Positions 13,716-40,000 of a DNA stretch of 40,000 nt are shown here, piece by piece; position 1 is the first letter of the stretch; each line of letters begins with the position of its first letter. The stretch is from Nocardioides pelophilus (GTDB lineage Bacteria; Actinomycetota; Actinomycetes; Propionibacteriales; Nocardioidaceae): positions 97,976-137,975 of the forward strand of contig NZ_JACEHF010000001.1 of assembly GCF_014180685.1 (NCBI RefSeq), written 5' to 3'. The notes under the pieces are model-generated. The model was not told where the DNA came from. It was given only the letters and a program-made list of their open reading frames with translations, and ran no database searches. A program made the translations under genes and the position numbers.

Positions 13716-13735
13716 CCACAACACAGGAAGAATCC

Positions 13736-14236: not shown

Positions 14237-14271
14237 GCTGCGACCCAGCCCCACGAGCTACAGGAACAACG

Positions 14272-14844
14272 ATGAGCACCGCCCAGGACGTGAGCGAGCA
14301 GGTAACACTCGTCAGCGCTGTCCGGCTTCGGGCGGGCGCAGAGGACGCACAGCGGATCCTTCACGACACCGGGGTCGCCGCTGCGCGGGCGCAAGGAGGC
14401 CTCGTGCGCGACGAACTTGTAGCCTCGGTGCCCGGCGTTCAGGTCGAGACCGTGGCATTGCTGACCTTCATCGATCGTGCACATCTCGACCAATGGCTTG
14501 CCTCACCCGAGCGCGCCGAGGTCCTCCGCGGCATGGACGACCTGGCAGTTTCCGAGCGCAGCATCAACGTCCTCAACGGCTTCCCCGGCTGGTTCGCGGA
14601 TGCGGGTGGGCGCGTCCCGGTCCGTTGGAAGCAGGCGCTGGTGGTGATCGCGGGGCTGATCCCGGTTTCGTACGTCGTGACGGAGCTCCGCACGCTGACG
14701 GCGCCCGAGCTGCCTCTGCCTGCTGTCATCGTCGTCAACGCCATCGCCAATGTCTGCATCCTGACGTGGATCGTGATGCCCGGGCTGCACCGGCTCCTGG
14801 CGCGATGGCTGCTCGAGAAGTCGCCCAGAGCTCGCGGCCTGTAG
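14272..14844 (+). CDS. ABM (antibiotic-biosynthesis-monooxygenase-like) domain fused to two C-terminal transmembrane helices
   Basis: The N-terminal ~100 aa have a ferredoxin-like ABM pattern ('VTLVSAVRLRAG...VALLTFIDRAHLDQWLASPE'). Hydrophobic segments 'WKQALVVIAGLIPVSYVV' and 'LPAVIVVNAIANVCILTWIVMPGL' follow. Confidence 0.55.
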   Translation: MSTAQDVSEQVTLVSAVRLRAGAEDAQRILHDTGVAAARAQGGLVRDELVASVPGVQVETVALLTFIDRAHLDQWLASPERAEVLRGMDDLAVSERSINVLNGFPGWFADAGGRVPVRWKQALVVIAGLIPVSYVVTELRTLTAPELPLPAVIVVNAIANVCILTWIVMPGLHRLLARWLLEKSPRARGL

Positions 14845-14915
14845 CCAACAGCGCTCCTGCCGCACGTGCGGCCCAACCCTTCGACTGTGGTCCACCAGGG
14901 CGGCTCCACCGGATG

Positions 14916-15854: not shown

Positions 15855-16972
15855 GAGGTTGCCACTTTCATCAGGCCCCGCAGTCGGGACAGGTCGAACT
15901 CGTTGTCTTGGCGAAGAGCGGTGGCCATGGCTCGCAGTTCCCTCAAGGACTCGCGTCCGGGCGCGATGCCGAGGAAGTCCTTGGTCGCGGGTGGTCCCCA
16001 CTGGGCCAGTCCGGACGCGGTCATCGGTGCCCAGCCCGGTTCGAGGGTGTTGTCGAACCGGTCGCCATCGGTGAAGTGCTCGACAAGGAAGCCGTCGGGG
16101 TCGCGCCAGTAGTCGAAGATCTGGCTTCCCTGGATGTGCCGGCCGATCCCCCACGATCGGTCGTACCCGAGGTCGAGCAGGTGCTCGCCGCCTGCCGCGA
16201 GCGCGTCGAGATCGCTGACCTGGTAGGCCGAGTGGACGTATCGGTTGCTGGGGCCCAGTGTCATCGCAAGCGCGTGGTGGTCGGCCAGCTCGGAGCCACG
16301 GTCGCACCGGATGAAGCTCATCGTCGGCCCCCGCTCGCGCTGGCCCGGGTAGTAGAGGAAGTCGCTGACGATCATGCCGAGGTGCGTCAGGTACCAGTCC
16401 AGGCTCTCGCGGTAACGGGTGCTCTGGAGCACGACGTGCCCGAGGCGCTCGACGACGGCCGGCGCGCGCGGCGGCCGCTGGGTGGCGTTGACGCGTCGTA
16501 CCTCACCCCCGGTGTTGACGACCAGCGGCTCCTGGGGCGGCTGGGCAGGGAGTTCGTGGGTGCCGGCGACGACACGGACACCGGCGCCGTCGGGCGCGGT
16601 GAGGTCGACGACCGCGCCACCGAGGCTCTCGGGCAATGCGTCTACCCGGGTGCCGGTGGCGTTCGCCAGCCGCAGGAGGTCGCTGCCCTCAGCAGCCCGG
16701 AACGCGGTGCCTGCGAAGCGCGATCGGGCTCCGCGTCGGATGATGACGGCCGGGCTGCCGGCGTAGACACCGCGGAGCTGGACCTCCTCGCTGGTCCGGC
16801 TCACGGTCGCGAACCCGAAGGCGTGGGCAAACCGCTCAGCAGCGGCCAGGTCGGGCTTCTCGAACTCGAGCCAGGCGAGATCGGCAACCTTGATGACCGG
16901 GTTGGCTGCCCGGCCCGGGTGCTCGCCACGCAGCGCACCCTGCTCGCTGTGCAGATCGTTGTGCGTGCCCAT
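15851..16972 (-). CDS. VOC-superfamily ring-cleavage dioxygenase (hydroquinone / extradiol type)
   Basis: Two glyoxalase-like halves: 'VADLAWLEFEKPDLAAAERFAHAFGF' and 'LGHVVLQSTRYRESLDWYLTHLGMIVSD...HHALAM...HSAYQV...GFLVEHFTDGD'. Start at ATG 16970-16972 overlaps the DoxX stop. Confidence 0.75.
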   Translation of the reverse strand: MGTHNDLHSEQGALRGEHPGRAANPVIKVADLAWLEFEKPDLAAAERFAHAFGFATVSRTSEEVQLRGVYAGSPAVIIRRGARSRFAGTAFRAAEGSDLLRLANATGTRVDALPESLGGAVVDLTAPDGAGVRVVAGTHELPAQPPQEPLVVNTGGEVRRVNATQRPPRAPAVVERLGHVVLQSTRYRESLDWYLTHLGMIVSDFLYYPGQRERGPTMSFIRCDRGSELADHHALAMTLGPSNRYVHSAYQVSDLDALAAGGEHLLDLGYDRSWGIGRHIQGSQIFDYWRDPDGFLVEHFTDGDRFDNTLEPGWAPMTASGLAQWGPPATKDFLGIAPGRESLRELRAMATALRQDNEFDLSRLRGLMKVATS

Positions 16973-24770: not shown

Positions 24771-25556
24771 TCAACCGATGTTGGTGCAGGTCACTGCAGC
24801 GACTGCGTCGTGGCTATGGATGCTCTCGAAGTTCCGAACCCGCACCTCGTGCGCGACTCCAAGCGCACGGCATGCCTGAGAAAGATCGCGCGCCATGTCC
24901 TCAACGAATGCCGGGTTGTCGTGCGCATTCATCGTGACGACACGCTCGTCGACGCGCTTGATGATCGGAAAGACCGGAGTTGACCCAACGTCGCGGATCA
25001 TGTCGAACTGACGATGAACCGGCAGCGGATACACGTCGTCGGACATCCCCAAGACGGTGAGGCTCACTCGACTGCGCTGATTGTGAGCGCCGTAGTCGCT
25101 GATCGCCTTGCTGCACGGACAAAGACTCGTGACGTCGGTCTCCGTTGTCGTGCGCGCCACGACGGCGTCGTCGTTCAGCGCGGCATGAATCGAGACGTCG
25201 CTGGCTTGCCATGCCTCGATGCCGGACGCGGGCGAGACGACCTCGAATGCAATCGGCAGTGACACGGCCAGCCGCACACCGTCGACGTCCAATCGGTCGG
25301 CAGCTGCCTTGAGGGTGGTGGGCAGTTCCCGCGGGTCGAAGTCACGGAGGTGCTCGTGTACGAGTTCGAGCATCCGGCTCATGTGCGTGCCGCGGCGATT
25401 AGCGGGGAGTCGAACCGTCACATCAACGGATGCAACCCCGCTCTGCAGTGTCGTTCCGTCGCTGAACCGGACTGGGTATCGCACTCCAGCGACTCCAACC
25501 TCGTCGAGTTCGATCCCTCGACGGTCAGCCTGGTCCTGAATGTCAGGCAGCTGCAT
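24771..25556 (-). CDS. folE2: GTP cyclohydrolase IB (FolE2)
   Basis: 'NRRGTHMSRMLELV', 'TSLCPCSKAISDYGAHNQRS', 'FESIHSHDAVA' are FolE2 hallmark blocks. Start at the internal ATG 25554-25556. Confidence 0.9.
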   Translation of the reverse strand: MQLPDIQDQADRRGIELDEVGVAGVRYPVRFSDGTTLQSGVASVDVTVRLPANRRGTHMSRMLELVHEHLRDFDPRELPTTLKAAADRLDVDGVRLAVSLPIAFEVVSPASGIEAWQASDVSIHAALNDDAVVARTTTETDVTSLCPCSKAISDYGAHNQRSRVSLTVLGMSDDVYPLPVHRQFDMIRDVGSTPVFPIIKRVDERVVTMNAHDNPAFVEDMARDLSQACRALGVAHEVRVRNFESIHSHDAVAAVTCTNIG

Positions 25557-25560
25557 TCGC

Positions 25561-25929
25561 TCACGCCCCTCGGTACACGCAGCCGGAAGTACAGGTCTCT
25601 CGGACCCTGATCTCATTGAGGTTTGGAAGCACCGCGATCAGGCGATCCCAGATCCACTTGGCGAGAACCTCGCTGGTCGGGTTCTCGAGCCCTTCGATCT
25701 CGTTGAGGTAGTAGTGATCGAGTTGGTCTTCGAGGGGCTTGAAGGCGTCCTTGATGTCGCCGAAGTCCTGAACCCAGCCGCTCTCGTCGCCGACGGGCCC
25801 GAGGACATGGATCTCGACCTTGTATGAGTGACCGTGGAGGCGAGCGCACTTGTGACCCTCTGGGACGTTCGGTAGGCGGTGCGCCGCTTCGAAGGAGAAC
25901 TCGCGGTAGATCTCAGCTGTGTGTGTCAC
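25561..25929 (-). CDS. queD: 6-carboxy-5,6,7,8-tetrahydropterin synthase
   Basis: '[28 protein letters not shown]' (Cx3HGH zinc/catalytic motif) and '[13 protein letters not shown]'; 122 aa. Confidence 0.9.
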
Positions 25930-26561
25930 GGAATCCCCAGGTACTTGTGGGTCTGCAGGCTGAGCTGCCAGCGCGGGTGCTCCATGCAGAACTTGACTGC
26001 GAGCTCGGTGTTGGCGGGAAGGTCGGGGCCATCCATCGGCTGGACGCGGAAGCTGGCGAAGTCCAGGTGCTCGAATGACACAGGGTCTACGCCGCCCTGG
26101 GGGACGACGAACTTCAACTCCTGTCCGCTCTGGACCACCAACTCGGCGCCAACCTTGGGGCTGACGCAGAGCCAGTCGATCCCGGCCGGCGGCTCGATCG
26201 TTCCGTTGGTCTCGACCGCTACGTAGAAGCCTCGAGCCTTGAGGGCCCGTACGGCGAGAGCGTCAAGTTGCAGCAGCGGCTCCCCGCCGGTGCAAACAAC
26301 CATGGGTTCACCGCCGGAACCATGGGGCCACCTCGATGCAACTGCGTCGGCGAGAGCCTCGGCGTCGCGGAACTTGCCGCCGCCTTCGCCGTCGGTGCCA
26401 ACGAAGTCCGTGTCGCAGAACTTGCAGATGGCGCGCTCTCGGTCCTTCTCGCGCCCGGTCCAGAGGTTGCAGGAACTGAATCTGCAGAACACGGAAGGGC
26501 GTCCAGCATGGGCACCCTCACCCTGGAGGGTGTAGAAGATCTCCTTGACCTTGTAGGTCAC
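25926..26561 (-). CDS. queE: 7-carboxy-7-deazaguanine synthase (radical SAM)
   Basis: '[47 protein letters not shown]' carries the CX14CX2C-type QueE cluster motif. ATGA overlaps on both sides. Confidence 0.9.
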
Positions 26562-27256
26562 GCCTGCGACCCCTGGTACTCAAGCGGATCCTCGAGACCC
26601 GCCTCAGCGAAGCCCTTGAGCCTGAGCAGGCAAGAGTCGCAGTGGCCGCATGGCCGGCCTTGGTCGTCCGGGTCGTAACACGAGGACGTGAGCGAGTAGT
26701 CCACTCCGAGCCGCTTGCCGATTTCGACGGTCTGAGCCTTGGTCAGCTCTATGAGCGGAGTGTGGATCCTGAGTTCGTTCCCCTCGACTCCGGCGCGGGT
26801 GGCGAGGTTCGCCATGCGCTCGTAGGCGGCGATGAACTCGGGCCTACAGTCCGGGTAGCCCGAGTAGTCGAGCGCGTTCACGCCGATGAAGATGTCGGTC
26901 GCTCCCACCACCTCCGCGTAGGCCAGAGCGAACGACAGGAAGACCGTGTTGCGGGCCGGCACGTAGGTGATCGGGATCTCCTCGCCGGAGATCTCCGCGG
27001 CGGAGTCATGCTTGGGGACCTCGACGTCGGCCGTGAGGGCGGATCCGCCGAACACGCGTAGGTCGATGTCACACACAACATGCCGAGAGACTCCGGCTGC
27101 CTCCGCGACGCGCTGCGCAGCGGCGAGTTCGATCTCGTGGCGCTGACCGTAGCGGAAGCTCAGGGCGTACGGTTCGAAACCCTGGTCCTTGGCGATCGCG
27201 AGCACGGTGGTGGAGTCCAGTCCCCCGCTCAGCAGTACGACGGCCTTCCTCGTCAT
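26558..27256 (-). CDS. queC: 7-cyano-7-deazaguanine (preQ0) synthase
   Basis: '[14 protein letters not shown]' PP-loop and C-terminal zinc cysteines '[21 protein letters not shown]'. Start is placed at the third Met (ATG 27254-27256) behind ggagagga; the track start 27274 is the alternative. Confidence 0.9.
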
Positions 27257-27292
27257 GCGCCTCATCCTCTCCATCTGTACACAACCTCGGTC

Positions 27293-27349
27293 CTACTCCA
27301 TAGCAACGAAACTACACGATAGAGTAGCCGCGTCGAACATGTAGTTTCG
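27293..27349. promoter_or_regulatory. Interleaved inverted repeats (pseudoknot-capable element / operator) in the queC-dpd divergent intergenic region
   Basis: Pair 1: cgaaactaca (27307-27316) with tgtagtttcg (27340-27349), 10 bp perfect. Pair 2: ctactc (27293-27298) with gagtag (27322-27327). The order a-b-a'-b' gives H-type pseudoknot topology on either transcript. This is the AT-richest line I counted in the island (29 G/C out of 60 nt). Confidence 0.35.
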
Positions 27350-27363
27350 GAAGCTGTGAGGTC

Positions 27364-28233
27364 ATGTCGCGACGGAAACTGACGATCATCGTCACCTGCA
27401 CTGACAGGAAGTTGGCGACCCCACGCCCCGAACTGATGGCTCGCAATCTTCCCCGTGGGGAGGTGGAAGCCCGCGCCCGGGTGTGGACGAAGTCAGTGGC
27501 CCGATCGCAAACGACCTCGCCGCTGATCGATCTGTACCGTGGCGAGACCTGGAGCCAGGTCAAGCGACTCATCGCCACCGCACGAGATGTCGGCTTCGAA
27601 CCGGACGTACTGGTAGCTTCAGCCGGACTGGGGCTTCGCTCCCTGAGCGACACGGCGCCTGCGTACGCGGCAACCTTCAGCGCTGGCCACGCTGATTCAG
27701 TTGCGGTCTCGATGGCCGAGACTCGGGCTTGGTGGAGAGCACTCCCCCGAACTTCGGCCCCCGTAGGCGGGCGTGCCCTGTGGGTGCTCTCAGAGAGCTA
27801 CTCACGGGCGATAGGAACCGACCTGTTAGAAAGCACCGCACCCAGCGAACTGCTGGTCTTTGGTGGCTCCCGGGAGATCCCCGATGACTTCCGGATCGCA
27901 TCAGATCGCTGGCTCCGCCAGGCCCTCGGTGGCACCACGACGAGCCTCAACCTTCGCGCGGCTACGCGGTGGCTAACGCTCACGAGGAACACGGATCCAT
28001 TTGCCGAAGACGCCCCTGTACTTTGGCGCGACTGGTCGGAGCGTTCACGCCGCCAGGAGGAGTACAACCGCAAGGCGATGTCGGACAGCGCAGTGCTTGA
28101 GTTCATCAGTGCCCTCAGGACACACGATCCGGCAATCTCCAAGACTCGCGCTCTCAAGTCGCTACGGGACTCGGGCTTGGCCTGCGAGCAGCGGCGCTTC
28201 TCAGACCTCTTCCTACAGGCGGCAGCCCGGTGA
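27364..28233 (+). CDS. Hypothetical protein, first gene of the dpdA operon (possible YaaA/DUF6884-like fold; occupies the place a DpdC-type function might take)
   Basis: 289 aa. Its stop overlaps the next start (GTGA). 'KLTIIVTCTDRKLA' and 'LIDLYRGETWSQV' are reminiscent of the strand-S/C-x-x-K plus 'lYxG' pattern of DUF328/DUF6884-type proteins, but I cannot confirm this. Confidence 0.5.
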   Translation: MSRRKLTIIVTCTDRKLATPRPELMARNLPRGEVEARARVWTKSVARSQTTSPLIDLYRGETWSQVKRLIATARDVGFEPDVLVASAGLGLRSLSDTAPAYAATFSAGHADSVAVSMAETRAWWRALPRTSAPVGGRALWVLSESYSRAIGTDLLESTAPSELLVFGGSREIPDDFRIASDRWLRQALGGTTTSLNLRAATRWLTLTRNTDPFAEDAPVLWRDWSERSRRQEEYNRKAMSDSAVLEFISALRTHDPAISKTRALKSLRDSGLACEQRRFSDLFLQAAAR

Positions 28234-29366
28234 CTAACCCAGATTGGCTGATACGCCGAGCGCTGAAGGTGCTGCAGAGCGACGAGACGCCGCTTTACCT
28301 GTTCACCCTCGCGGCCGAGGAGGTCGACCTGGTTGCCGATGTTGCCCGCATCGGCCGGGACGAGGCGGGAAAGTTGATCGGCTATCAGCGCCCCGAGAAG
28401 CAGAAGCACGTCAAGCAGATCCAGGATTACCTGGACTCCGAAGATCCCCTCTTCCCCAACGGGCTCATCCTCGCTTTGCCACCGGAGGTCAAGTTCAAGT
28501 CCAGCCGCGGCCCGACGACGACCGACGGGCTCGCCGTGGCTGGGACCTTGGAGATCCCGATCGCGACGGACCGGGAAGGTCCCCGACCGGCATGGATCGT
28601 TGATGGGCAGCAGCGCAGTTTGGCGCTTGCTCGAACCAGGAACCGACGCCTGCCCGTCCCGGTTGCTGGGTTTGTGGCTCCCACCCTGGAGCTCCAGCGT
28701 GAGCAGTTCCTACGCGTGAACACCGTTCAGCCTTTGCCAACCGGTCTCGTCACCGAACTACTGCCCGAGATCTCCAGCGTGCCGTCCGCACGCATGGCCA
28801 CAAGACAGTTGCCCTCAGCGCTCGTCGACATGCTGAATCAGGACAAGGACTCGCCTTTCCGCGGGATGATCCGGCGAGCATCCACGCGGGCCGAAGAGAA
28901 AAAGCGGGCCGTCGTCACTGACACCAGCCTTGTGGAGGCCATCCGCGAATCAGTCGAGTCACCGTCAGGGGTTCTCTTCCCGTACCGAAACATCGCCAGC
29001 GGGACAACCGACACCGAGGGCATCCGGCGGGTGCTCTTGGCCTACTGGGGGGCGGTGCGAGAGACGTTCCCTGAGGCGTGGGGCAAGTCCGCGAACAAGA
29101 GTCGGCTCATGCACGGGGTTGGCATCCGGGCGATGGGTCGGGTCATGGACCGGGTGATGACCCATGTGCGCGACGATGACCCGCGGGCCCAGGAGCGCGC
29201 TGCGCAGGAACTGGGGCTGATCGCGGAGAAATGCCGATGGACTAGCGGCACTTGGGAGGATCTGGGTGTCGCGTGGAATGACCTGCAGAACACGCCGCGA
29301 CACATCAGCGCGCTCTCGAACTACCTCGTGCGCACGTACCTTGCTGAACGGACCGGTCGAAAGTGA
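28230..29366 (+). CDS. dpdB: DGQHR-domain (here DGQQR) ParB/DndB-like protein, DpdB-like paralog 1
   Basis: 'GYQRPE', 'PAWIVDGQQRSLAL', 'FLRVNTVQPLPTGLVTELLP', 'KSRLMHGVGIRAMG', 'CRWTSGTW', 'LQNTP'. Immediately upstream of dpdA, and its stop overlaps the dpdA start (GTGA). Confidence 0.75.
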   Translation: MTNPDWLIRRALKVLQSDETPLYLFTLAAEEVDLVADVARIGRDEAGKLIGYQRPEKQKHVKQIQDYLDSEDPLFPNGLILALPPEVKFKSSRGPTTTDGLAVAGTLEIPIATDREGPRPAWIVDGQQRSLALARTRNRRLPVPVAGFVAPTLELQREQFLRVNTVQPLPTGLVTELLPEISSVPSARMATRQLPSALVDMLNQDKDSPFRGMIRRASTRAEEKKRAVVTDTSLVEAIRESVESPSGVLFPYRNIASGTTDTEGIRRVLLAYWGAVRETFPEAWGKSANKSRLMHGVGIRAMGRVMDRVMTHVRDDDPRAQERAAQELGLIAEKCRWTSGTWEDLGVAWNDLQNTPRHISALSNYLVRTYLAERTGRK

Positions 29367-30589
29367 AGTTCTACTTCCCAGACAGCCAGGACCTCGTCAG
29401 TCCGACCTACGACTTCCTACGCGACGAGTACGTGGCACATCGAGTCCGGCAAAGGGACGACCGATACGCCCACGAGGTGCTTGAACGGGCCCCTTACCAC
29501 GGCGTGCTTGTCAGCAAGTCGATCGTCGACGGTTCCATCAAGGGCGCAGGCAAGTACTCGGGCGCCCAGCGCGCCCGCATGTATCGGATGGGCGTACGGC
29601 GCTTCTTCCGCCTCCCAGACGAGGTGGAGACGCTCGGCGACAACGGCGCCTTCAACTACGTCGATGAAGAAGTGCCTCCAGTCACGGCGGAGGAAACCCT
29701 CGACTTCTACGACGAGTGCGGCTTCGATGCGGGGGTCAGCACCGACCACATCATTTTCGGTTACGCCCCGGGCGCCACGGAAGCAGATGTCGACCCGCAG
29801 TGGGCAGAACGTCGACGTCTGACGTTGAGGCTTGCCGAGCAGTTCATCGAGGCAGTCCGCGAACGACGAAGCACCGTGCAACCGGTTGGCGCCGCGCAGG
29901 GCTGGAGTCCCGATAGCTTCGCCGACAGCGTGCACGCCCTTCAGGACATGGGATACGAACGAATCGCGCTGGGCGGCATGGTCCCTCTCAAGACCAACCA
30001 GATCCTCGCCTGCCTCACTCGCATCCATGAAGTACTCAAGCCCGAGACCGAACTGCATCTTCTCGGCATCACGCGGATCGACTCGATGGATGACTTCGCC
30101 GACTTCGGCGTTGCAAGCTTCGACAGCACGTCGGCGTTCCGCCAGGCATTCATGGACGACCGGAAGAACTACCACACAGCTGAGCGGGCCTACGTAGCCA
30201 TCCGAGTCCCGCAAGTCGACGGCAACCCAACACTCAAGCGCGCCATCCTCGCCGGCGCGGTCAGCCAAAGGGAGGCGTTGACCGCCGAACGCGACGCCCT
30301 CAAGGCGCTCAGGGCCTACGACGGAACCGTGCGCGCCCGGCGGGCATGCATCGACGCACTCGGCGCGTACGAGGCGGTGTGCCAGTCCAAGAAGTCATAT
30401 CTAGCTGCATACGACGAGACACTCGCGGACGCGCCCTGGACGCGCTGCCGTTGCAAGCTGTGCACGCAACATGGCGTTGAGATCGCCATCTTCCGCGGCA
30501 CCGAACGCAACAAGCGTCGTGGGTTCCACAACATGTCGGTGCTCGCTCAACGCATGAGTGTTCTTAGGTCCAACACGAGGAGAGCCTGA
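29363..30589 (+). CDS. dpdA: TGT-like DNA 7-deazaguanine transglycosylase DpdA
   Basis: TIM-barrel TGT blocks 'LGDNGAFNY', 'ERIALGGMVPLK', 'LHLLGITR', 'ASFDSTSAFRQA'. Zinc site 'CRCKLCTQH...RGFHN' (CxCxxC...H). 408 aa, next to preQ0 genes and DGQHR-type proteins. Confidence 0.85.
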   Translation: MKFYFPDSQDLVSPTYDFLRDEYVAHRVRQRDDRYAHEVLERAPYHGVLVSKSIVDGSIKGAGKYSGAQRARMYRMGVRRFFRLPDEVETLGDNGAFNYVDEEVPPVTAEETLDFYDECGFDAGVSTDHIIFGYAPGATEADVDPQWAERRRLTLRLAEQFIEAVRERRSTVQPVGAAQGWSPDSFADSVHALQDMGYERIALGGMVPLKTNQILACLTRIHEVLKPETELHLLGITRIDSMDDFADFGVASFDSTSAFRQAFMDDRKNYHTAERAYVAIRVPQVDGNPTLKRAILAGAVSQREALTAERDALKALRAYDGTVRARRACIDALGAYEAVCQSKKSYLAAYDETLADAPWTRCRCKLCTQHGVEIAIFRGTERNKRRGFHNMSVLAQRMSVLRSNTRRA

Positions 30590-31698
30590 TGGCCGATCGC
30601 TACGAAATCCGGCTTCCCGCATTGCGGATCCGTCAGGGACAGCAGTACATCTACACTTTCGGCGTCGATGGCAAGCAGATCCACGACTTCGCAACAGTCA
30701 GTCGGGTCCACCGTCACGACATCGAACTCCAGGGCTACCAGCGTCCTGAGGTGCTCAGCCACATTCGAGCTATCCGCCGTTACCTCGAGTCCGATGGGGC
30801 AATGCTTCCCAACGCGATCGTGCTTGCCTTCGATGAACGGGTGAAGTTCGAGCCGGTAGGTTCCCGCAGCGTCGTTGACTACGTCGCCGCCGGCGAACTC
30901 GTCATTCCTGTCGATGAATCGCTGCCGGATGACGAGAAGCCCGCTTGGCTCGTGGACGGGCAGCAGCGAAGTGCCGCGATCCGCGATGCGGACCTCGCCG
31001 AGTTCGCAGTCGCTGCAGTCGGATTCATCGCCCACGGCGAAGCGGAGCAGCGCTCGCAGTTCATCTTGGTGAACAACACGAAGCCCCTGCCGAAGGGCCT
31101 CATCCATGAACTCCTGCCGGACACCAAAGGGCATCTCCCGACCGCATACGCCAAGAAGCAGTTGCCGGCGCAGGTGCTCACGCGTTTGAACTTCGGGCAA
31201 CGGGCGAAGGGCGAACCGTTTGCGGGACGAATCGCAACGCCCACCATGGCCGATGGCTACATCAAGGACAACAGCGTCCTGAAGATGATCGAGAACAGCC
31301 TCTACGACGGCGCCCTGTACCAATATCGCGATCCCGTGGACGGGAGCGGCGACATCGACCAGATCGTGTTGCATCTCAACTACTACTGGACCGTCGTGCA
31401 GGTGACCTTTCCCGACGCATGGGAACTCCCGCCCACCAAGTCACGCCTCACGCATGGCGCGGGCATTCAAGCACTCGGCTACGTGATGGACGCCTTGACC
31501 GACGGAACGCCTGCTGCTCGACTTCCGAAGCTTGGCATCGAGCACAAAATCGCGGCGCTTGCGGAGCATTGCGCGTGGACGAGCGGATCGTGGAACCTGG
31601 GTGGCGACGAACCGCGTCGGTGGAACGGCATCCAGAACACCCCAAACGATGTGAGGTTGCTGTCGAGTCACCTGCTGCGGGCCGTTCGACGAGCCTAG
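30589..31698 (+). CDS. dpdB: DGQHR-domain (here DGQQR) ParB/DndB-like protein, DpdB-like paralog 2
   Basis: Collinear with paralog 1: 'GYQRPE', 'PAWLVDGQQRSAAI', 'FILVNNTKPLPKGLIHELLP', 'KSRLTHGAGIQALG', 'CAWTSGSW', 'IQNTP'. 1-nt overlap (TGATG) with dpdA. Confidence 0.75.
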   Translation: MADRYEIRLPALRIRQGQQYIYTFGVDGKQIHDFATVSRVHRHDIELQGYQRPEVLSHIRAIRRYLESDGAMLPNAIVLAFDERVKFEPVGSRSVVDYVAAGELVIPVDESLPDDEKPAWLVDGQQRSAAIRDADLAEFAVAAVGFIAHGEAEQRSQFILVNNTKPLPKGLIHELLPDTKGHLPTAYAKKQLPAQVLTRLNFGQRAKGEPFAGRIATPTMADGYIKDNSVLKMIENSLYDGALYQYRDPVDGSGDIDQIVLHLNYYWTVVQVTFPDAWELPPTKSRLTHGAGIQALGYVMDALTDGTPAARLPKLGIEHKIAALAEHCAWTSGSWNLGGDEPRRWNGIQNTPNDVRLLSSHLLRAVRRA

Positions 31699-31704
31699 TT
31701 GGTT

Positions 31705-33873
31705 CTAGCCGCCGAGCGCTTCTTCCAGGGCGCGCAAGAAGCCGGAGTGGCCCTTCAAGCGCGGAAGGATCTGCTTCTCCCGCGGACGCACGGCGTCAAT
31801 CGCGCCCGTGGCTTGGTGCGCTGCATGCCAGGTATCGACAATGAAGTAGTCAGCCCTCTCTGCAAGGGACTTGAGCGCTTGGGTGGCGACCTCGTCGTGG
31901 TTCTCCTTCACGTCACCGACGGAACATAGCTTCGCGAGACGGGCCCTGAGGTGGGTCTCGACGCGGGGCAGAAGCGAGTAAATTCCGACGAGCTTGCCGT
32001 CGAGTGCCGACCACACGTCGCGCTCAATCTTCGGCGCCTCAATTTCCTGTGATGGCAACCCGAGGCCGGCGGCGAGCACTTCCACCTCTACCCGTTCTCG
32101 GAAGCTCAAGCGTCCGGAGTGCAGTCGGGCACCATCGATCATCAAGACCGCCAGCCCGGTGCGCTTCGAATCAACGGGGCACGGTGAATCGGCCACGAGC
32201 TCAAGTACGTTGATGCACCATCCGACCGCGTTGGGTGACGCGATCCGCTGCCAGATCTTGAGGGTTAGGTCGAGCACCTCTTCGTACTCCCCTGCCGAAG
32301 GACCCACTTCGAGCCAGGCGGCGAAGAGATCGAGGTAGGCGGAGCGAACCATTTCGCTGAAGTTGTCCTGTTCCGACAACAACGCCAGCACGACCTGACA
32401 GAAGTCGTTCGAGGAGCCGCCGGCCAAGATGCGGGCCGACTCCCGGCACAGTAGGTCGATGCATGCCCGCAGTTGATCCGCATTGGTTCCTCCGGACGCT
32501 TCGAGCAATGCATCGCACACGGCGGCGAGTTGCTGGGCGTCCAGAGTTCCGAGTTGCGGCCAAGCCTCCGCGTTGTTGCGGGCAACCGCGGCCGCATCCG
32601 CCCATCTCACGTCGCCTGCGAGCCTCTTGGCCCATTCGACCCAATCTGCGCAGGAGGCATCAACGAACTGCTCGAGCTCCGCCAGGTCTCTTCTGCCGTG
32701 CCTCGTGAGTTCGAGTGCCCCGCGCTTCCCGAGATCACGGACCGCAGCGAGCACGCGTGGCGCGTGCTCTACCTCGCCAGAATCGAGGATGGCCTGCAAG
32801 GCAAGTTCGGCATACCTGGCAGTGGGGTCTGTGATGAAGGTCGAGACCACGTCCGCGAGTCGGCCTTCCCGAAACGCCTCAGCAACAGGGTCGGCCACTG
32901 GCACAAGGACTGGAGCGTGACCCGGCAGGTCGGCTGGCGTGGCCGTCGCTTCACGCTCGGGTGCGCTGGCGAGCGCTTTCAACCGGTGTCGTTCTTCTGG
33001 CTCTTCGGCCCGCTCGAGAATCGAGGTCTGCCACTCGACATCTTCGTCCGCGAGTGCCGCCAAGAAGCACACTCCGCGACCTTCCGGCGTGGAAGGTACG
33101 CGCACGGACCGCACTAGCGGCCCGAACTCCCCAAGTACGCCGCGTTCGTTGAAGGCGATGCGGGGGTTCTCGTGCTCTGGTCCGGAGAGTTCCGTCCACC
33201 AGACCATTCGCAGCAAAGTCTCCGAAATCGCCCTCGGGCGACGCGTCTGCAGCAGCGCGCTGATATAAGGCATTGCCCGCATCTCGGCCCAGCGCCCGAA
33301 CGCGGCGAAGTACTCAATTCGCAGGTAACGAAGATTTTCGGCGCTCACATGGCCGTTGAGAACGATCTGGTCGAGCAGACTGCGGGCCGAATCGTCGTCC
33401 CGGCGCAGGAGTGCTAACCGGAAGTCGCGAAGGAGTTCACTGTTCGTCGGCTTGATCTCCAAGGCCGTCCACTGGCGCCCTCCGACCGAGGCGACCATGT
33501 CTTCGAGTCGCGCCAGCATCTCCGCTGCTCCGTTGGGCCTGTGGTCGACCCGCCGTAGGAACGACGCGCGGACCAGGCCCGTGGACTTCCATGCAGGCGG
33601 TAGTTCCGCATTCAGGCGTGATTCGGTGACCGTGTCGACGGACACTACGCCCGGACCGAGGAATGCAACGACCACCTCGCGTCCGCGACGTTGACCTTCG
33701 CTGTCCTCGCTGAAGAGGTAGAAGCCGTTCGTCCACGGAAGTACGAGCCACTCGCTCGCCCCCGTTCGGAACCTAGAGACCTGAGACTCGACGAGCCCCT
33801 CGATGCGGTCCACGAACGCTCCGAATCGACCGAGGTCGCCGATCAGGTCAGGGAGAGCGGTATCAATCCTCAC
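31705..33873 (-). CDS. Large hypothetical protein (722 aa), last gene of the helicase/PLD operon
   Basis: GTG start overlaps the PLD stop (GTGA). Codon bias looks coding throughout, and the sequence is mostly alpha-helical by eye. I recognise no catalytic motif (no Walker A, no nuclease motif). Any relationship to Dpd (for example DpdD) or DrmE-type proteins is untested. Confidence 0.65.
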   Translation of the reverse strand: MRIDTALPDLIGDLGRFGAFVDRIEGLVESQVSRFRTGASEWLVLPWTNGFYLFSEDSEGQRRGREVVVAFLGPGVVSVDTVTESRLNAELPPAWKSTGLVRASFLRRVDHRPNGAAEMLARLEDMVASVGGRQWTALEIKPTNSELLRDFRLALLRRDDDSARSLLDQIVLNGHVSAENLRYLRIEYFAAFGRWAEMRAMPYISALLQTRRPRAISETLLRMVWWTELSGPEHENPRIAFNERGVLGEFGPLVRSVRVPSTPEGRGVCFLAALADEDVEWQTSILERAEEPEERHRLKALASAPEREATATPADLPGHAPVLVPVADPVAEAFREGRLADVVSTFITDPTARYAELALQAILDSGEVEHAPRVLAAVRDLGKRGALELTRHGRRDLAELEQFVDASCADWVEWAKRLAGDVRWADAAAVARNNAEAWPQLGTLDAQQLAAVCDALLEASGGTNADQLRACIDLLCRESARILAGGSSNDFCQVVLALLSEQDNFSEMVRSAYLDLFAAWLEVGPSAGEYEEVLDLTLKIWQRIASPNAVGWCINVLELVADSPCPVDSKRTGLAVLMIDGARLHSGRLSFRERVEVEVLAAGLGLPSQEIEAPKIERDVWSALDGKLVGIYSLLPRVETHLRARLAKLCSVGDVKENHDEVATQALKSLAERADYFIVDTWHAAHQATGAIDAVRPREKQILPRLKGHSGFLRALEEALGG

Positions 33874-34400
33874 AGGACACCACCAAACCTGTCGAACGCA
33901 TCCATGCGCGCTTGCGCTACATACCCCTGATCCGTGCGGAGATCGACGGACTCTTCCCTGACTTGGATGCCATTGAAAGTGATATTCATGCTTCCCGCGA
34001 GAGCGAAGTCGTCTCCGGTGAGGGCCTTGGTGTGGAGGTTGTTCGACGTATCAATGGCGATTGTGAACTGGCCCTCCACACGCAGATCTGCGGCCAGCAA
34101 CTTGAGCCTCTCGAGGAAGCGCGTGTTGTGATCGTCAGTCGTCGTGCCGACGACGATGTGTGCATCCTTCTCAGCAAGAGCCACCAGGATCTCCGCAAGT
34201 CGGATTCTTCGCTTGCCGAAGCGAGTCAGCGCGTCGAAGTTCCCCGCGGTGTTGTCGAGTAGTTCCACATCGGAGACCCAAGGCGAGACGAGCCAGAGGC
34301 ACTTGCTTGGGAAGCAGAGCTCGGCACTGAATAGGCCGGCAAGGAGGTCAGCCGCCTCAGTTGCGCTGGCGCTTTGCGACTTCCGGATGACGCGATTCAC
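33870..34400 (-). CDS. Phospholipase-D-family (single HKD) nuclease-like protein, DpdK/DrmC-like
   Basis: 'NLHTKALTGDDFALAGSMNIT' is an HxK(x4)D...GSxN motif, at about 34011-34034. The single copy implies a Nuc-like dimer. Start set at GTG 34398-34400, overlapping the helicase stop (GTGA); the track start 34478 lies inside the helicase gene. Confidence 0.8.
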   Translation of the reverse strand: MNRVIRKSQSASATEAADLLAGLFSAELCFPSKCLWLVSPWVSDVELLDNTAGNFDALTRFGKRRIRLAEILVALAEKDAHIVVGTTTDDHNTRFLERLKLLAADLRVEGQFTIAIDTSNNLHTKALTGDDFALAGSMNITFNGIQVREESVDLRTDQGYVAQARMDAFDRFGGVL

Positions 34401-37400
34401 CAAGTCTCCCTCAGCGCGAGCCGGGCTTCGGCGAGGGCGCCACGGTCGTGTACGCCGAGCACTTCTGGATAGCACCACAGCGGACCTACCTCGATCGGTG
34501 TCGTGTGGAGGTCGATCACGGCGGTTCGAAGTGCTCGCTTGGACGCCGCTGGAACGCGCAGGAGAAGTTCGCCGTGGGCACGAAGGAGCCTATGGGCCTC
34601 GGATCTGCTCCCGTCGTTCCAGGCGGTGAACTCGAGACTCTCGACCGGCGAGTGCCAATGTGCGCGGAGCAGCTCGATCGATCCGTCGCCACGTCCGGCG
34701 TACGGGTTGAAGCTACGGGTCGAACGTGCAGAGCGGCCCCGAGGCCACAGCACGTTCGCGATTGCACGCGCGCGTTTCATCTCGTCGGGGCTCTCAAGGT
34801 GCAGATACGGGTCAACGCTGTCACGGCTAGCCAGGAGAGCAGCCAAAGTCCGAGGCTCGATTTCGAGACCGCTCCGACGTTCGGCGGCGTCACGGGCCTG
34901 CAGCCACTCTCTCACCTCTCCCAGGAAGGCCGGATCTGCTCCCGGACCTGCGAGGCGCGTGGAGAGCGCGATCTTCCCAGGGTGCTCCAGCACAAGCCCA
35001 GAGCTCTCGAGGGCGGTGTCCAATCCCACGGCGGCACGCCGCACCGCGTCGTGCCCTTCCGGCCAACTGTCGGCCAGGGCAGCTACAGCGCCTTGCACAG
35101 ACACATCGGTGCAGTCGATCACCGCACGCAGTTGGTCGTCGAGCAGTTCAAGATCGGTGGGACGAAGCACATCGGCCAGTGCCATCGGCAACCGCTCTGG
35201 TCCCTCGATCAGATCGACCGCGAGGGCTTCGATCTGACCGGTACCGCCGGGCGACTGCTCTGAGATGTAGAACGTGGCGCTCTCGTGTGGGTCGACATCA
35301 ATCAGAAGGTCGTCGGCATCGACATGGCCATTGCCGGCAACGAGTGCGTCTAGCAAGGTGTGGGCAGCGCTTAATGTGAAGCGTCGCTCATTCCACGCCA
35401 GCCACTCGTCGGAACGCCGAGGGGCGCGGGAACCGATCAGGTGACTGAGCACGCTTCCGAGCACGTCCGCGTCCCCGATCCATGCCGAGAGGGTGCCGGG
35501 ATTCGCCGGGTCGATCAGACCAAGCACGGTCCCCACTCGCCGCATCTCGTCGGCGAACTGCCGGTCGTCAGGGTGGCCAGCGCTCCAGTCCCACACGGCG
35601 GCGAACGCTTCGGCCGCATCCGCCAGACCGCTCCGGTCGAATGTGGACATTTCGTCGGGGAATCCAGGGTCGCTCTCTATAAGTTCGCGCATCCACTCGG
35701 CGCGCTCGGCGGGCGTTGGACCGGCGTCAAAGGACGGCAGAGCCACACGACCGTGGAGAGCATCGGCATGAATCTCGACCCCGAGTGCGGCTTGCTCCCA
35801 GGACCCGTCACTGCCCGCGCAGAACCGAATTCGCTTCGGGTTGGACTGGCCGTTCAGCCAGAGCACGCCTCGTCCCGATTCCGCGTAACGGACCAGGCGT
35901 ACACCGCCACCTTGACTGTGCAGGTGGGCAGTAATAGCTGGGAAGAAGCCGCAGGCAGCACCCGCGACTGGCAGGGGTGTCCCCGCCCCAAGAGGTGTTG
36001 CGTTGAAGTTCCAATCGGCGCGCATGGACGACGCATCACTGACCTCCGGCGGTACCGACGCCAGAGCGACGCGGCTCGGAGCAAACACGTGTGTGACACG
36101 TCCGTCTGTCACAACGTCATCGATGGGAATGCCGCCGAACGTCGCCACGTCGACGAGATGGGTGCCGTCGGTGTCGAGTTCGGGCGGTAGAGCCACCCAA
36201 TGGCGCTTGTTGGCAGCCCAAACTCCGAAGTGCCGCGAAACATTGCCCGGAAGGAACTCACGAATCGCCCGGAGCGCGGGAAGGTGCTCGACGGTGGTCT
36301 CGCCTCGCGCCCAAGGCACCTGGAACTCCACATCCGGGACGAGCAGTTCGTCGAAGAGGTTTCCCGGTACAAACTCACGCAGAGGTGTGCGCGTCCTCAC
36401 GCCAGAGTCGTCATCAGCAGGTCGTTCGGCGTTCCACTGATCCCGAAGCCTGCGGCGCAGAGTTGGAACAACTGCCGCCAGTAACGGCCGTGGCGCCTCC
36501 CAGAGAATCTTGTCGACCGTAACGTCGGCAACCGTCCCGTTTCCGAGAGACAGACTTCGACGAAGGTGGCGGGTCAATGAGGTGCGCTCAGGCCCGTCAC
36601 GGAGAAGTGCAGCAAGAAGATCGGCCAGCTTTGTTTGCCGTTCCTGTGTCTTCGGCCTCCACCTGGGGTCCTTGGCGAGCAGATCGGCAGGACCCGAACT
36701 GTCTGCCCAGGTCGAATTCCGTCCGTACCCCAGCCGCTGCGCGAGCCAGTCGAGCAGGCTGTAGACCGCTTGAATTCGCAGGACGTAGAGGTTCCCCAAG
36801 GGCAAAGAACGGGGCGGCACAATGGGGCTGAAGAGCGCATCGTAGGCGTCCCAGGCATCACGATCGCGACCCCAGTCGCTGAGAACCACCACAGTCCATG
36901 GCCGCGTAGAAGCGTTTCGTCCCGCGCGACCCTTACGTTGGAGGAACTGCGCGACATCATGCGGAGCCTTGTGCTGAAGTACCGCACCGACGCGGTCGTC
37001 ATCGAACCCCACTTCCAGGCTGGCGGTCGCAACCACAATCTCCGCGTCTGACGCAACACCAGTGTCCTGAGAACTCGTTCGACCAATGCCCTTCTGCACG
37101 TCGCCGTCGATCTCGTGCCCCAGCGTCTCGGCAAGCCACCAGTACTGACCCTCCGGGTCGCGAAGGCTGGGATCCTCCTTCCGGGGTGGCTGAATGGAAC
37201 TCTGATCATGAGACCGTAAGTGGGCCAACGTGAGTGGGCTCGTGTTCTGCTTCACCTGACCGGGCCATGCCCAGCCTTCCGCGTCGAGCACGTCCCAGTA
37301 CAAGCGGTTCGTACTGTCGAGCTTGTCCGTGAAGGCGAAGAGGCGGCTACCGAAGATCCCACCTGAGTCGACTGGCGGGTTAAAGGGATTCCCGACCATC

Positions 37401-38785
37401 GGGTCTAGCGAACGCGACAGAGCCATCGCCGCCTGGATCGTGGTCGAGAGCGTCCCTGTGTTGCCGTGCGGGTTGTGGCGCAGCGCCATCAAGTACTCAG
37501 CCCCGGACTCTTCCAGCTCAGAAGGATCCGGTTCGACGACCGAGACGCGACCAGCATCAAGATCAACGAGACGGCCGAAGAACCCCGCTGCGTCCGTAAG
37601 GGTTGCCGACAGGCCGGCCCACAGTGGCTCGTAGCCAAGTGCCTTGCGCAAGCGACGAAATAGGTAGGCGTTCTGCGCGCCGGTTGTTCCTTCGTAGGTA
37701 TGAACCTCGTCCAGCAAGACAGCCCGAAGCCCGCTGTGAACGACGCCGAATGCACGCAGGTTGCCCGGCGAAGACAGTTGTCGGTTGAGCGACTCGGTGG
37801 TGCTGAGCATCACTCTGGGTGGGTGCGATCGAGCGGATTCGCGCGTCAGGCGCAAAAGGCTCCCGGGGACCTCGGTGCCACACGCCGTACACCTGAGCAA
37901 CTCGGTGCCGGTTCGGAGTTCCTGAATCGGCCAAACGAGCGCGCCGTCCTCGCAGTCCTCGTTCGGGCAATGCAAGAACGGGCAGACATAGCCGCCGGCC
38001 ACTTTGCGCCACGAGTCGGCTCTACCGTCGCGGACGAGTTTGGCCGACGCGGGCGTGGCGCCGAACCATGTCGCGAGGGTAACGGGGCTCGAGTCGCCGC
38101 CGATTCCCTGAAGTCGCATTGCGTACGCGACGAGCGCGCGCAACTGGTCCTTTAGCAGCTCGTTGCGCGGATAGAGGGCGAGGGCGAGTACACCCGGTGG
38201 GCGACCGGCGTTGTCGCAGATCCAGGCCAGCATCGGCATGTAAAAGGCAAGGGTCTTTCCGCTTCCCGTGCCGGCGGTGACCACGACGCCAGCCGCCTCC
38301 CTCGTGCTCAGTGCCTCGAGAACCTGCTGAGTGGACCGCTGCTGGAATGCGGAGACGTGGTGTGGGGTGAGCGCTCGGAGCGCGTCGATGCCCGCGGAGG
38401 CGAGTGAGTCACCGACCGCAGTCTCGAAGACAGCCGCGGGAACGTCGCGCCGGGGGCGACGGCGAGGTCGTTGGAGCAAGCGATAGTCGAGGACGAGCGG
38501 CCGTCCCGAAAGCACTGCTTCCCCGCGGAACGCCTGCCGTAGCGTCGCCAACAGTCGGACCGTCTCGGCACTTCGTGAGCGATACCCGCCGGACGGCGTC
38601 TCGACGACCAGGGCCAACTCCAACATCTCGTCGAGCAGTCGTTCGCCATCTCCGTAAGCACGGAGCACGTCCACCAGTTCGTCGCGATGCCACTGAGCAC
38701 CGACCGCACCCCAGGCAAGCAGCGCAGCCTCGCGGAGTTCGATCGCAGTCAGCGCCTTCTGGAGCAACTCAGACATCAGCATCAT
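34397..38785 (-). CDS. Giant SF2 DEAD/DEAH-box (DEVH) helicase with a Cys-rich insertion and ~820-aa C-terminal extension, DpdJ/DrmA-like
   Basis: Q motif 'FQQRS'; motif I 'AGTGSGKT' (38252-38275); Ia 'LYPRNELLKDQ'; II 'LLDEVH' (37700-37711); III 'LSAT'; V/VI 'ATASLEVGFD...FLQRKGRAGR'. Zinc-ribbon-like 'CPFLHCPNEDC...CTAC' lies between Ia and II (37880-37984). I recognise nothing in residues ~640-1462. Confidence 0.85.
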   Translation of the reverse strand: MMLMSELLQKALTAIELREAALLAWGAVGAQWHRDELVDVLRAYGDGERLLDEMLELALVVETPSGGYRSRSAETVRLLATLRQAFRGEAVLSGRPLVLDYRLLQRPRRRPRRDVPAAVFETAVGDSLASAGIDALRALTPHHVSAFQQRSTQQVLEALSTREAAGVVVTAGTGSGKTLAFYMPMLAWICDNAGRPPGVLALALYPRNELLKDQLRALVAYAMRLQGIGGDSSPVTLATWFGATPASAKLVRDGRADSWRKVAGGYVCPFLHCPNEDCEDGALVWPIQELRTGTELLRCTACGTEVPGSLLRLTRESARSHPPRVMLSTTESLNRQLSSPGNLRAFGVVHSGLRAVLLDEVHTYEGTTGAQNAYLFRRLRKALGYEPLWAGLSATLTDAAGFFGRLVDLDAGRVSVVEPDPSELEESGAEYLMALRHNPHGNTGTLSTTIQAAMALSRSLDPMVGNPFNPPVDSGGIFGSRLFAFTDKLDSTNRLYWDVLDAEGWAWPGQVKQNTSPLTLAHLRSHDQSSIQPPRKEDPSLRDPEGQYWWLAETLGHEIDGDVQKGIGRTSSQDTGVASDAEIVVATASLEVGFDDDRVGAVLQHKAPHDVAQFLQRKGRAGRNASTRPWTVVVLSDWGRDRDAWDAYDALFSPIVPPRSLPLGNLYVLRIQAVYSLLDWLAQRLGYGRNSTWADSSGPADLLAKDPRWRPKTQERQTKLADLLAALLRDGPERTSLTRHLRRSLSLGNGTVADVTVDKILWEAPRPLLAAVVPTLRRRLRDQWNAERPADDDSGVRTRTPLREFVPGNLFDELLVPDVEFQVPWARGETTVEHLPALRAIREFLPGNVSRHFGVWAANKRHWVALPPELDTDGTHLVDVATFGGIPIDDVVTDGRVTHVFAPSRVALASVPPEVSDASSMRADWNFNATPLGAGTPLPVAGAACGFFPAITAHLHSQGGGVRLVRYAESGRGVLWLNGQSNPKRIRFCAGSDGSWEQAALGVEIHADALHGRVALPSFDAGPTPAERAEWMRELIESDPGFPDEMSTFDRSGLADAAEAFAAVWDWSAGHPDDRQFADEMRRVGTVLGLIDPANPGTLSAWIGDADVLGSVLSHLIGSRAPRRSDEWLAWNERRFTLSAAHTLLDALVAGNGHVDADDLLIDVDPHESATFYISEQSPGGTGQIEALAVDLIEGPERLPMALADVLRPTDLELLDDQLRAVIDCTDVSVQGAVAALADSWPEGHDAVRRAAVGLDTALESSGLVLEHPGKIALSTRLAGPGADPAFLGEVREWLQARDAAERRSGLEIEPRTLAALLASRDSVDPYLHLESPDEMKRARAIANVLWPRGRSARSTRSFNPYAGRGDGSIELLRAHWHSPVESLEFTAWNDGSRSEAHRLLRAHGELLLRVPAASKRALRTAVIDLHTTPIEVGPLWCYPEVLGVHDRGALAEARLALRETW

Positions 38786-39473
38786 CTACCGGCGAGCCCG
38801 CGACGATCCTGAAACGGTCGAGCGCGTTGTGCGACTTCAGCCAATCGATGACATCCGCTGTCATGAGTTCGATCGAGGCACCTCCGCGCGCAACAGCCGA
38901 GAGGAACCGTCGTACTGAGTCGGGCTTAAGCGACTCCTCCAGCCTGCGCAACGACACCTCGGCTCGAGTCAGGAGTTCGGCGGACTGCTGCGAAGGAGCC
39001 GAACTCTGCGTACGCGCCAACTCTCCGAGCGCCGTTCGCAGCTCCTGTGAGATGCCCGCGATGCCCTCGACCTCGGACAAGGTCTCGGAGAGGCTGAGGA
39101 GATCAGTCACGTCTCCAAGCCGATGAGAGGCATAAGCGCTCCACCGCTCCTTTACAGCGATGTGGACATCCCCTCGGAAGCGTTCAAGGGCCTTGATAAC
39201 GCGGTTCAGAGGACGCGAGTCCAGCGAGGCCGCTGCTTCGGCTAGGTCACGGGCGAGATCTGGGCTTGGGTACTTCCCTTCCCACCCGAACGGCCGCACC
39301 ACCGAGACGCCCTCGACGAGCACGCGAAACTCGGCGATCAGTCGTTCTAGATCCGTCCTCGCTTCCTCCAAGAGAGCGACTTGGCGCCGCGCCTCGTCGG
39401 CATTCTTTGCGAGTTGCACCGCCTCTTCAGCGGAAGCAATCCACGACACCCCTGCTCCGTCTGTCGCCATCAC
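38769..39473 (-). CDS. Hypothetical alpha-helical / coiled-coil protein (234 aa)
   Basis: ATGA overlap with the upstream ORF, and its stop overlaps the helicase start region by 8-17 nt. Heptad-like helical sequence, for example 'EEAVQLAKNADEARRQVALLEEARTDLERLIAEF'. No enzymatic motif. Confidence 0.6.
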   Translation of the reverse strand: MMATDGAGVSWIASAEEAVQLAKNADEARRQVALLEEARTDLERLIAEFRVLVEGVSVVRPFGWEGKYPSPDLARDLAEAAASLDSRPLNRVIKALERFRGDVHIAVKERWSAYASHRLGDVTDLLSLSETLSEVEGIAGISQELRTALGELARTQSSAPSQQSAELLTRAEVSLRRLEESLKPDSVRRFLSAVARGGASIELMTADVIDWLKSHNALDRFRIVAGSPVDDADV

Positions 39474-40000
39474 TTGCCCCCCGGTCCAAGAGAATTGGCG
39501 AGCGTCGCCAACTCTTCGACTTGTGTCTTCACTTGGGCGCGGAGGGTCGAGACATCTCCGGCGTGACCGCCTCCTCGCTCGGACTCCTTCTTCGTCTCCC
39601 CCACGACGTGCTTCACGAACGTCAATGCCTTCGCGAGCCGCTCAAGCTCACGTATTGCGCGCTGGCGATACACCACTGCTCCGATATCCCCATCGCCGAT
39701 GATCGGTACGTCGTCGAGCGTCGCCCCGGAAATGAGTTCGAGGGCAGCGCGGAAATCCAGCCATTTGTCTTGGGGCCGGAAGAGGCCACCGTCCCTTGCC
39801 AGCACACTGACCTCTTCAGCCGCCAACGCGACGGCTGCGGGCGGATGTCCCTCGAGCAGCGAGGTGACGGTTTCGTACGCCTGCTTTGCCGACTCCGCCG
39901 CGGGGCTGGTACCGGCGGCCACAGCAGCCACGAGATCCTGGGCAGCCTGAGCCAAAACCGGATCTGCCTTCGAAGCTGCCACTTCGTCGAGTGCCTTCTT
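39470..40000 (-). CDS. Hypothetical alpha-helical protein; the frame is open to the window edge, so the N-terminus may lie beyond it
   Basis: The frame is open from 39470 to 40000 with no stop; GTG 39982 is a possible start. 'RQRAIRELERLAKALTFVKH...LRAQVKTQVEELATLAN' is helical. Coupled to the downstream gene. Confidence 0.5.
   Translation of the reverse strand, partial: KKALDEVAASKADPVLAQAAQDLVAAVAAGTSPAAESAKQAYETVTSLLEGHPPAAVALAAEEVSVLARDGGLFRPQDKWLDFRAALELISGATLDDVPIIGDGDIGAVVYRQRAIRELERLAKALTFVKHVVGETKKESERGGGHAGDVSTLRAQVKTQVEELATLANSLGPGGK

Follow-up and report, generated by a model that had tools for sequence, protein, structure and literature searches.

The block at positions 31705-40000 of a 40,000-nucleotide stretch of the Nocardioides pelophilus genome (the window, meaning the whole of the DNA that was analysed) is almost certainly the distal part of a canonical Dpd (7-deazapurine-in-DNA) restriction operon. 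The proteins of the window were run against NCBIfam equivalog models with curated cutoffs, PADLOC profiles and Pfam. Judged by these matches and by position, the genes of the block read dpdH (3' end)-dpdI-dpdJ-dpdK-dpdD, each mapping onto a named Dpd component (Table 1). An earlier sequence-only reading had taken the block for the probable restriction arm, with the effector logic of dpd genes, and had likened the helicase to DpdJ and the phospholipase D (PLD) protein to DpdK; the NCBIfam and PADLOC profiles bore out both points. Its proposal that this was a modification-dependent defence system of a variant kind not described before did not hold up: a one-to-one mapping onto Dpd components, which that reading had itself named as evidence against the proposal, was found, in the gene order of the Enterobacter cloacae and actinobacterial islands. 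Since each component corresponds to a known Dpd family and the gene order is the established one, the block is no new variant. Its Dpd identity is already known and public databases carry such annotation; no novel component, order or domain is contributed by the locus.

The large helicase of the block is DpdJ, a superfamily 2 (SF2) protein of the YprA family. It matched its NCBIfam model with 1164.3 bits (cutoff 800), its residues 12-1461 aligning to positions 1-1480 of the 1482-position profile, and the PADLOC profile with 1230 bits. Walker A (AGTGSGKT) lies at residue ~172, followed by DEVH at 359 and by motif VI (QRKGRAGR) at 616. A sequence search of the Protein Data Bank (PDB) matched DpdJ to just generic SF2 or YprA/DruE-like helicase cores, with YprA (6znp) among the weak matches. 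The four-Cys DUF1998/MZB cluster was not found in DpdJ, whose C-terminal part holds just scattered cysteines (945, 989, 1225 and 1438). A Cys cluster (C268, C273, C278, C299 and C302) is inserted in RecA1 between Walker A and DEVH, so that the earlier statement that no Cys cluster exists was correct for the C-terminal DUF1998 type and missed the RecA1 cluster. In the published description of canonical DpdJ, the four-Cys DUF1998 cluster is lost and one zinc-binding module is kept inside RecA1, with an N-terminal MukF-like winged helix-turn-helix, a C-terminal ALBA-like domain and a PLD nuclease partner (bioRxiv 10.1101/2025.09.15.676423). By its residue pattern, the window DpdJ fits this canonical Cys arrangement, and because the same four-Cys loss is published for the canonical Dpd clade, it is placed in the DpdJ sub-clade and not in a new type.

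Directly downstream of dpdJ lies dpdK, whose product matched the NCBIfam model with 189.6 bits (cutoff 100) and the PADLOC profile with 181.7 bits. The longest open reading frame (ORF) here begins at 34478, while the DpdK profile and the gene call in a relative favour the GTG at 34400. At residue 123, DpdK carries its one HxK(x)4D...GSxN motif, and both the HxK and the GSMN are kept across actinobacterial, Enterobacter and Paenibacillus orthologues. No solved DpdK or DpdD structure was returned by the PDB sequence search. The Dpd PLD nuclease has been described as lacking the four-helix bundle of DrmC from the DISARM defence system (bioRxiv 10.1101/2025.09.15.676423).

The last gene of the operon had been set down as an orphan of 722 amino acids. 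It is DpdD, with 453.5 bits against an NCBIfam cutoff of 300 over positions 24-704 of the 704-position profile, and 467.5 bits against the PADLOC model. An NCBI protein entry, "protein DpdD [Nocardioides pelophilus]", is 100% identical to the window protein. In precomputed annotations, which list both PF28109 (DpdD) and PF28110 (DpdG), the family PF28109, labelled "DpdD", is present on all 106 DpdD homologues.

The two remaining genes encode the proteins at the upstream end of the block. The ORF at the window edge aligns to positions 1033-1199 of the 1206-position PADLOC DpdH profile and shares 53-56% identity with the C-terminal end of Nocardioides DpdH. Because its frame stays open right up to base 40000, it is the 3' end of a longer gene, of ~1020 amino acids, and not a gene of 170 amino acids. 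Full-length DpdH, a P-loop/AAA ATPase, has ~1018-1032 amino acids in relatives L004, L001 and L011 (1024 in L011). The helical protein of the next gene shares 65% identity with the protein that occupies this slot in Nocardioides. In pairwise BLAST it matched the protein in the DpdI slot of Enterobacter weakly (22% identity, E 1.5e-5), and that protein is left unnamed by NCBI too. Orthology of the 234-residue protein to DpdI is supported by its position between dpdH and dpdJ, its size and this BLAST match, all of them sequence-level indications. The sequence-only reading had found no nameable motif in three of the proteins; profile families were found for all three, namely the DpdH C-terminus, DpdI (weakly) and DpdD. 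A motif-based reading left most of the block anonymous because, on the five proteins, the Pfam copy that was used sees just helicase fragments (DEAD and Helicase_C above cutoff) and sub-cutoff ResIII and PLDc_2, and returned no family for DpdD or DpdI.

The minus-strand ORFs are tightly coupled across the whole block, as four complete genes and the 3' end of a fifth. On the coding strand, the dpdJ stop and dpdK start share a GTGA at 34400-34397 and the dpdK stop and dpdD start share a GTGA at 33873-33870, while the dpdI stop and dpdJ start overlap by 17 nucleotides (38785-38769), or by 8 nucleotides from a later ATG. These three junctions had been placed correctly before. The fourth, given as an ATGA at 39470-39473, reads AAG TGA TGG on the coding strand, so that the dpdH stop and dpdI start share either a GTGA (GTG start) or a 1-nucleotide TGATG overlap (ATG start). 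The coupled run of five had likewise been seen correctly, except that its 170-residue member is no separate gene and is the dpdH 3' end; the extension of the operon past the window edge is confirmed by the edge ORF, which is open to base 40000. A consensus scan gave no promoter-like sites within the operon, and terminator-like sites within it were not above shuffle expectation. Taken together, the overlapping junctions and the lack of internal promoter or terminator signals indicate co-expression. At the other end, dpdD converges on the second dpdB, with 6 nucleotides between the stop codons.

Relatives of the island were collected by a genome scan with DpdJ, which gave loci L001-L006, and by one further relative, L011, with 88% DpdD identity (Logan DRR655544). 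The scan recovered loci from Nocardioides, Mycobacterium asiaticum, Mycolicibacterium arenosum and actinomycete metagenome-assembled genomes, with DpdJ 65-75% identical. The relatives have the order DpdE-F-G-H-I-J-K-D, and in L001, L004 and L006 this run faces B-A-B-C. Upstream of DpdI, DpdE (an SNF2 protein) matched with 771-780 bits (cutoff 500) and DpdF (RecQ-like) with 589-592 bits (cutoff 550); DpdG, with 50-51 bits, stayed under its cutoff of 80, and in L011 that slot holds the Pfam family PF28110 (DpdG). The gene calls of L011 (233, 1462, 176 and 722 amino acids, the first in the dpdI slot and with an ATG start) equal the lengths inferred for the window genes. Between dpdD and dpdB, L011 also carries, at 12944-16028, a transposase fragment, an unannotated protein of 518 amino acids and an HNH protein of 276 amino acids. 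The actinomycete Dpd islands of Nocardioides sp. SYSU DS0663 and D00065, Mycobacterium asiaticum and Mycolicibacterium arenosum have the same content and order as the window, including the dpdB duplication, with DpdK 74-83% and DpdD 56-64% identical to the window proteins in addition to the DpdJ values above. They differ in the flanking genes only, which in the window are a SIR2-APAZ/short prokaryotic Argonaute (pAgo) pair and a HEPN/RES protein. Among Actinobacteria, Kineococcus radiotolerans is an example with modification shown experimentally (cited in PMC12235509).

The enterobacterial Dpd system (dpdA-K), known from Salmonella enterica serovar Montevideo, was compared through its copy on Enterobacter cloacae plasmid pPOL9A (NZ_CP086409.1). 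NCBI annotates this copy as dpdE-F-G-H-(unnamed)-J-K-D facing dpdB-dpdA-(unnamed). The DpdJ, K and D families are the same in the window, DpdH and DpdI probably so, and DpdE-F-G are found in its relatives. The order E-F-G-H-I-J-K-D converging on dpdB-dpdA-dpdC, the overlapping junctions, the single-HKD DpdK and a DpdJ with a Cys cluster in RecA1 and no DUF1998 Cys4 cluster are shared as well. The identity between the two is just 22-31% (in pairwise BLAST, DpdJ 30.6% over its full length, DpdK 27.8%, and DpdD in two segments with E ~1e-7). The window further differs from the enterobacterial system by a second DpdB downstream of dpdA, an adjacent folE2-queD-queE-queC set and an actinomycete host. 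Since the same order occurs in the Enterobacter cloacae island and the actinobacterial relatives, dpdD after dpdK is the normal physical layout and no rearrangement. The translational coupling of dpdK and dpdD is present in three phyla, DpdD being the gene most closely linked to the PLD nuclease in Actinomycetota, in Enterobacteria and, with a relative of 935 amino acids, in Paenibacillus. That last locus, on plasmid pART37 of Paenibacillus sp. 37 (L010, 7720-36470), is a Dpd-like island of non-canonical architecture that carries dpdJ twice; the 935-residue distant DpdD relative (E 1e-11) comes after dpdJ-dpdK, and a DpdA of 689 amino acids is accompanied by an extra TGT-like gene.

These comparisons bear on whether the operon could be a modification-dependent defence variant distinct from both Dpd and DISARM, as first proposed. 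Such a variant would find some support in the weak conservation of DpdI (50 bits, below cutoff), in the silence of the Pfam copy on DpdD and DpdI, and in the presence of two DpdB paralogues rather than one. All components nevertheless match Dpd families, the order equals that of enterobacterial and many actinobacterial islands, and an identical protein is already named DpdD at NCBI. Among the 2335 dpd islands that have been catalogued, 333 unique ones of them from Actinomycetota, duplication of dpdB is, moreover, the commonest change in copy number (PMC12235509). A distinct variant is therefore highly unlikely.

DISARM was considered as the other possible home of a helicase-PLD pair, in this case with its helicase of the DrmA type and its PLD of the DrmC type beside a deazaguanine module. 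The two systems share a YprA-clade SF2 helicase with a small PLD nuclease, a mode of restriction tied to a self mark, and an SNF2 partner (DpdE/DrmD-like), which is seen in relatives of the window. DpdJ has been placed with DrmA in one YprA clade (bioRxiv 10.1101/2025.09.15.676423), and weak partial matches were obtained for the helicase to DrmA models and for the PLD to DrmC (E 8e-4). The best DrmA match reached 23.8 bits against a cutoff of 950, whereas the DpdJ and DpdK equivalog matches are far stronger and full length. In contrast to DISARM, the helicase here is not split from the OB-CON-DUF1998 module and the four-Cys cluster is absent, the Dpd mark is 7-deazaguanine with no methyltransferase, and the PLD lacks the N-terminal four-helix bundle according to the literature. 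No separate DrmB/DUF1998 gene was found among the operon ORFs, and no methyltransferase (DrmMI/DrmMII) match among the operon proteins or the upstream genes of the relatives with NCBIfam, Pfam and PADLOC. With neither DrmA plus a separate DrmB nor an associated methyltransferase found, DISARM membership was rejected, and a DISARM-like system at this locus is extremely unlikely. The missing C-terminal DUF1998-type Cys cluster and the missing methyltransferase, the two differences stressed by the sequence-only reading, are thus real, but they separate the block from DISARM and not from Dpd. That no methyltransferase is present is inherent to Dpd because its self mark is a 7-deazaguanine, dPreQ0 or dADG, installed by DpdA, DpdB and DpdC (PMC10164549).

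The proposed working of the Dpd system in N. pelophilus follows from its orthologues. In Salmonella, DpdA and the DpdB ATPase insert preQ0 into DNA and DpdC converts it to dADG, and genetic evidence has shown that dpdD-K are needed for the restriction phenotype (PMC10164549). By orthology, FolE2, QueD, QueE and QueC would make preQ0, DpdA with the DpdB ATPase would swap specific guanines of the host DNA for preQ0, and DpdC would carry the base on to dADG. The dpdD-K products would then restrict DNA that lacks the mark. DpdHI has been described as BrxC-like (bioRxiv 10.1101/2025.09.15.676423), and DpdH with DpdI may make up a P-loop ATPase module of this kind, for sensing DNA or for assembly of the complex. 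DpdJ would be a YprA-like, ATP-driven translocase or helicase with DNA-binding accessory domains that tracks along unmodified DNA. DpdK would be the nuclease that cuts; because it has a single HKD it would need to dimerise to form one active site. DpdD, most likely non-catalytic, would act as a solenoid scaffold with alpha/beta end domains that bridges or regulates DpdJ and DpdK.

To describe DpdD structurally, an alignment of 67 sequences and a full-length AlphaFold2 (AF2) model were used, the latter with a predicted local distance difference test (pLDDT) score of 88.5. The model has an alpha/beta domain at ~1-130, an alpha-solenoid at ~144-603 and a small three-layer alpha/beta domain at ~615-722 that is flavodoxin/receiver-like. 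In the C-terminal domain, N658, D660, H686 and T689 are invariant, and D675, D680, T681, W682 and H683 nearly so. Residues 615-722 make up a confidently modelled alpha/beta domain with a conserved D-x4-DTWH-x2-H-x2-T, for which no specific library fold match was obtained. Foldseek against the PDB gave, for whole DpdD, generic TPR/HEAT/importin-like solenoids with template modelling (TM) scores <= 0.25. When residues 600-722 were modelled separately (pLDDT 87), weak matches to CheY-receiver and flavodoxin-like folds were found (TM <= 0.49, E >= 3e-3). No nuclease or NTPase fold was found for DpdD with the AF2 model and Foldseek against the PDB, and because the structure searches gave just generic or weak matches, no catalytic role can be assigned to it. 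From the model, the most reasonable reading is that DpdD would scaffold or regulate DpdJ-DpdK as the effector, which fits the coupling of dpdK and dpdD. More specifically, and only as a doubtful suggestion, DpdD may be a non-catalytic solenoid adaptor whose receiver-like C-terminal domain binds a ligand or partner and thereby gates DpdJ-DpdK. An adaptor or gating role is undescribed for any Dpd protein and concerns the family, not this locus.

Several points weigh against the assignment of the block to a canonical Dpd operon, or against parts of it. DpdI fell short of its cutoff of 150, matching NF041066 with 50.4 bits (E 2.9e-13). In the relatives, DpdH scored 378-401 bits, under the NCBIfam cutoff of 450, with 878 bits against the PADLOC DpdH profile. 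The window ends inside dpdH, so that most of dpdH and all of dpdE-F-G were read in relatives and not in this genome. Fold matches to the end domains of DpdD were weak (TM <= 0.49, E >= 3e-3). A literature search for biochemical characterisation of DpdD-K found none, and the division of roles among these proteins is inferred; dPreQ0 or dADG in N. pelophilus DNA is likewise a prediction from the gene content. The operon might also be a decayed or non-functional remnant, as function was here read from sequence alone and L011 has mobile-element insertions between dpdD and dpdB. A remnant is exceedingly improbable, given that none of the four complete genes is shortened relative to its profile, that catalytic motifs are intact and translational coupling is kept, and that the modification and preQ0 genes are intact too.

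Alongside the canonical Dpd restriction operon lies what reads, from its gene content, as a complete modification arm that brings its own supply of preQ0 and directly adjoins the operon (24771-31698; Table 1). The two DpdB paralogues flank dpdA and are 36% identical to each other, and this two-dpdB layout is kept in the Nocardioides and Mycobacterium relatives. Frequent duplication of dpdB has been reported without a function being given for the second copy (PMC12235509). Next to the preQ0 and dpd genes, the pAgo gene lies directly downstream of that for SIR2-APAZ, and the pair looks like a SPARSA-type short pAgo system. The HEPN/RES protein beyond it is likely a toxin or defence gene at the left edge of a defence island. 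Because this protein and the SIR2-APAZ/short-pAgo pair adjoin it, the Dpd system is taken to sit in such an island. Further upstream, at 1-19 kb of the window, lie catabolic genes of the aromatic-ring hydroxylase, dioxygenase and FAA-hydrolase type and a TetR regulator.

Table 1. Features of the Dpd restriction operon, the modification arm and the adjoining defence genes in the window (aa, amino acids).
Feature	Coordinates	Strand	Basis or remark
dpdH 3' end, last 176 codons	39470..40000	-	PADLOC DpdH PDLC02876, E 1.8e-13
dpdI, 233-234 aa, helical	38769..39473	-	start GTG 39473 or ATG 39470, overlapping dpdH stop
dpdJ, 1462 aa, YprA-family SF2 helicase	34397..38785	-	NCBIfam NF041067, PADLOC DpdJ
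dpdK, 176 aa, single-HKD phospholipase-D-family nuclease candidate	33870..34400	-	NF041068, PADLOC DpdK; GTGA overlap at both ends
dpdD, 722 aa, last gene of operon	31705..33873	-	NF041061, PADLOC DpdD
dpdB, second paralogue	30589..31698	+	NCBIfam DpdB, 508 bits vs cutoff 300
dpdA, DNA guanine transglycosylase	29363..30589	+	NCBIfam DpdA, 604.9 bits vs cutoff 200
dpdB, first paralogue	28230..29366	+	NCBIfam DpdB, 409 bits vs cutoff 300
dpdC	27364..28233	+	PADLOC DpdC PDLC02817, 332 bits, E 6e-100
queC	26558-27274	-	NCBIfam QueC, 214 bits
queE	25926-26561	-	NCBIfam QueE, 340 bits
queD	25561-25929	-	QueD, 113.9 bits vs cutoff 89
folE2	24771-25616	-	NCBIfam FolE2, 212 bits
Short prokaryotic Argonaute, 474 aa, and SIR2-APAZ, 599 aa	21444-24664	-	PADLOC pAgo_I, 531 bits; Aga_SIR2, 470 bits
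HEPN/RES N-terminal domain 1 and RES domain protein, 458 aa	20056-21432	-	Pfam, 66 bits each

The individual biochemistry of DpdD-K is a question for the whole family, on which this locus sheds no special light. What the N. pelophilus island does offer is a GC-rich actinobacterial set of orthologues with intact motifs, from which proteins for reconstitution could alternatively be drawn.

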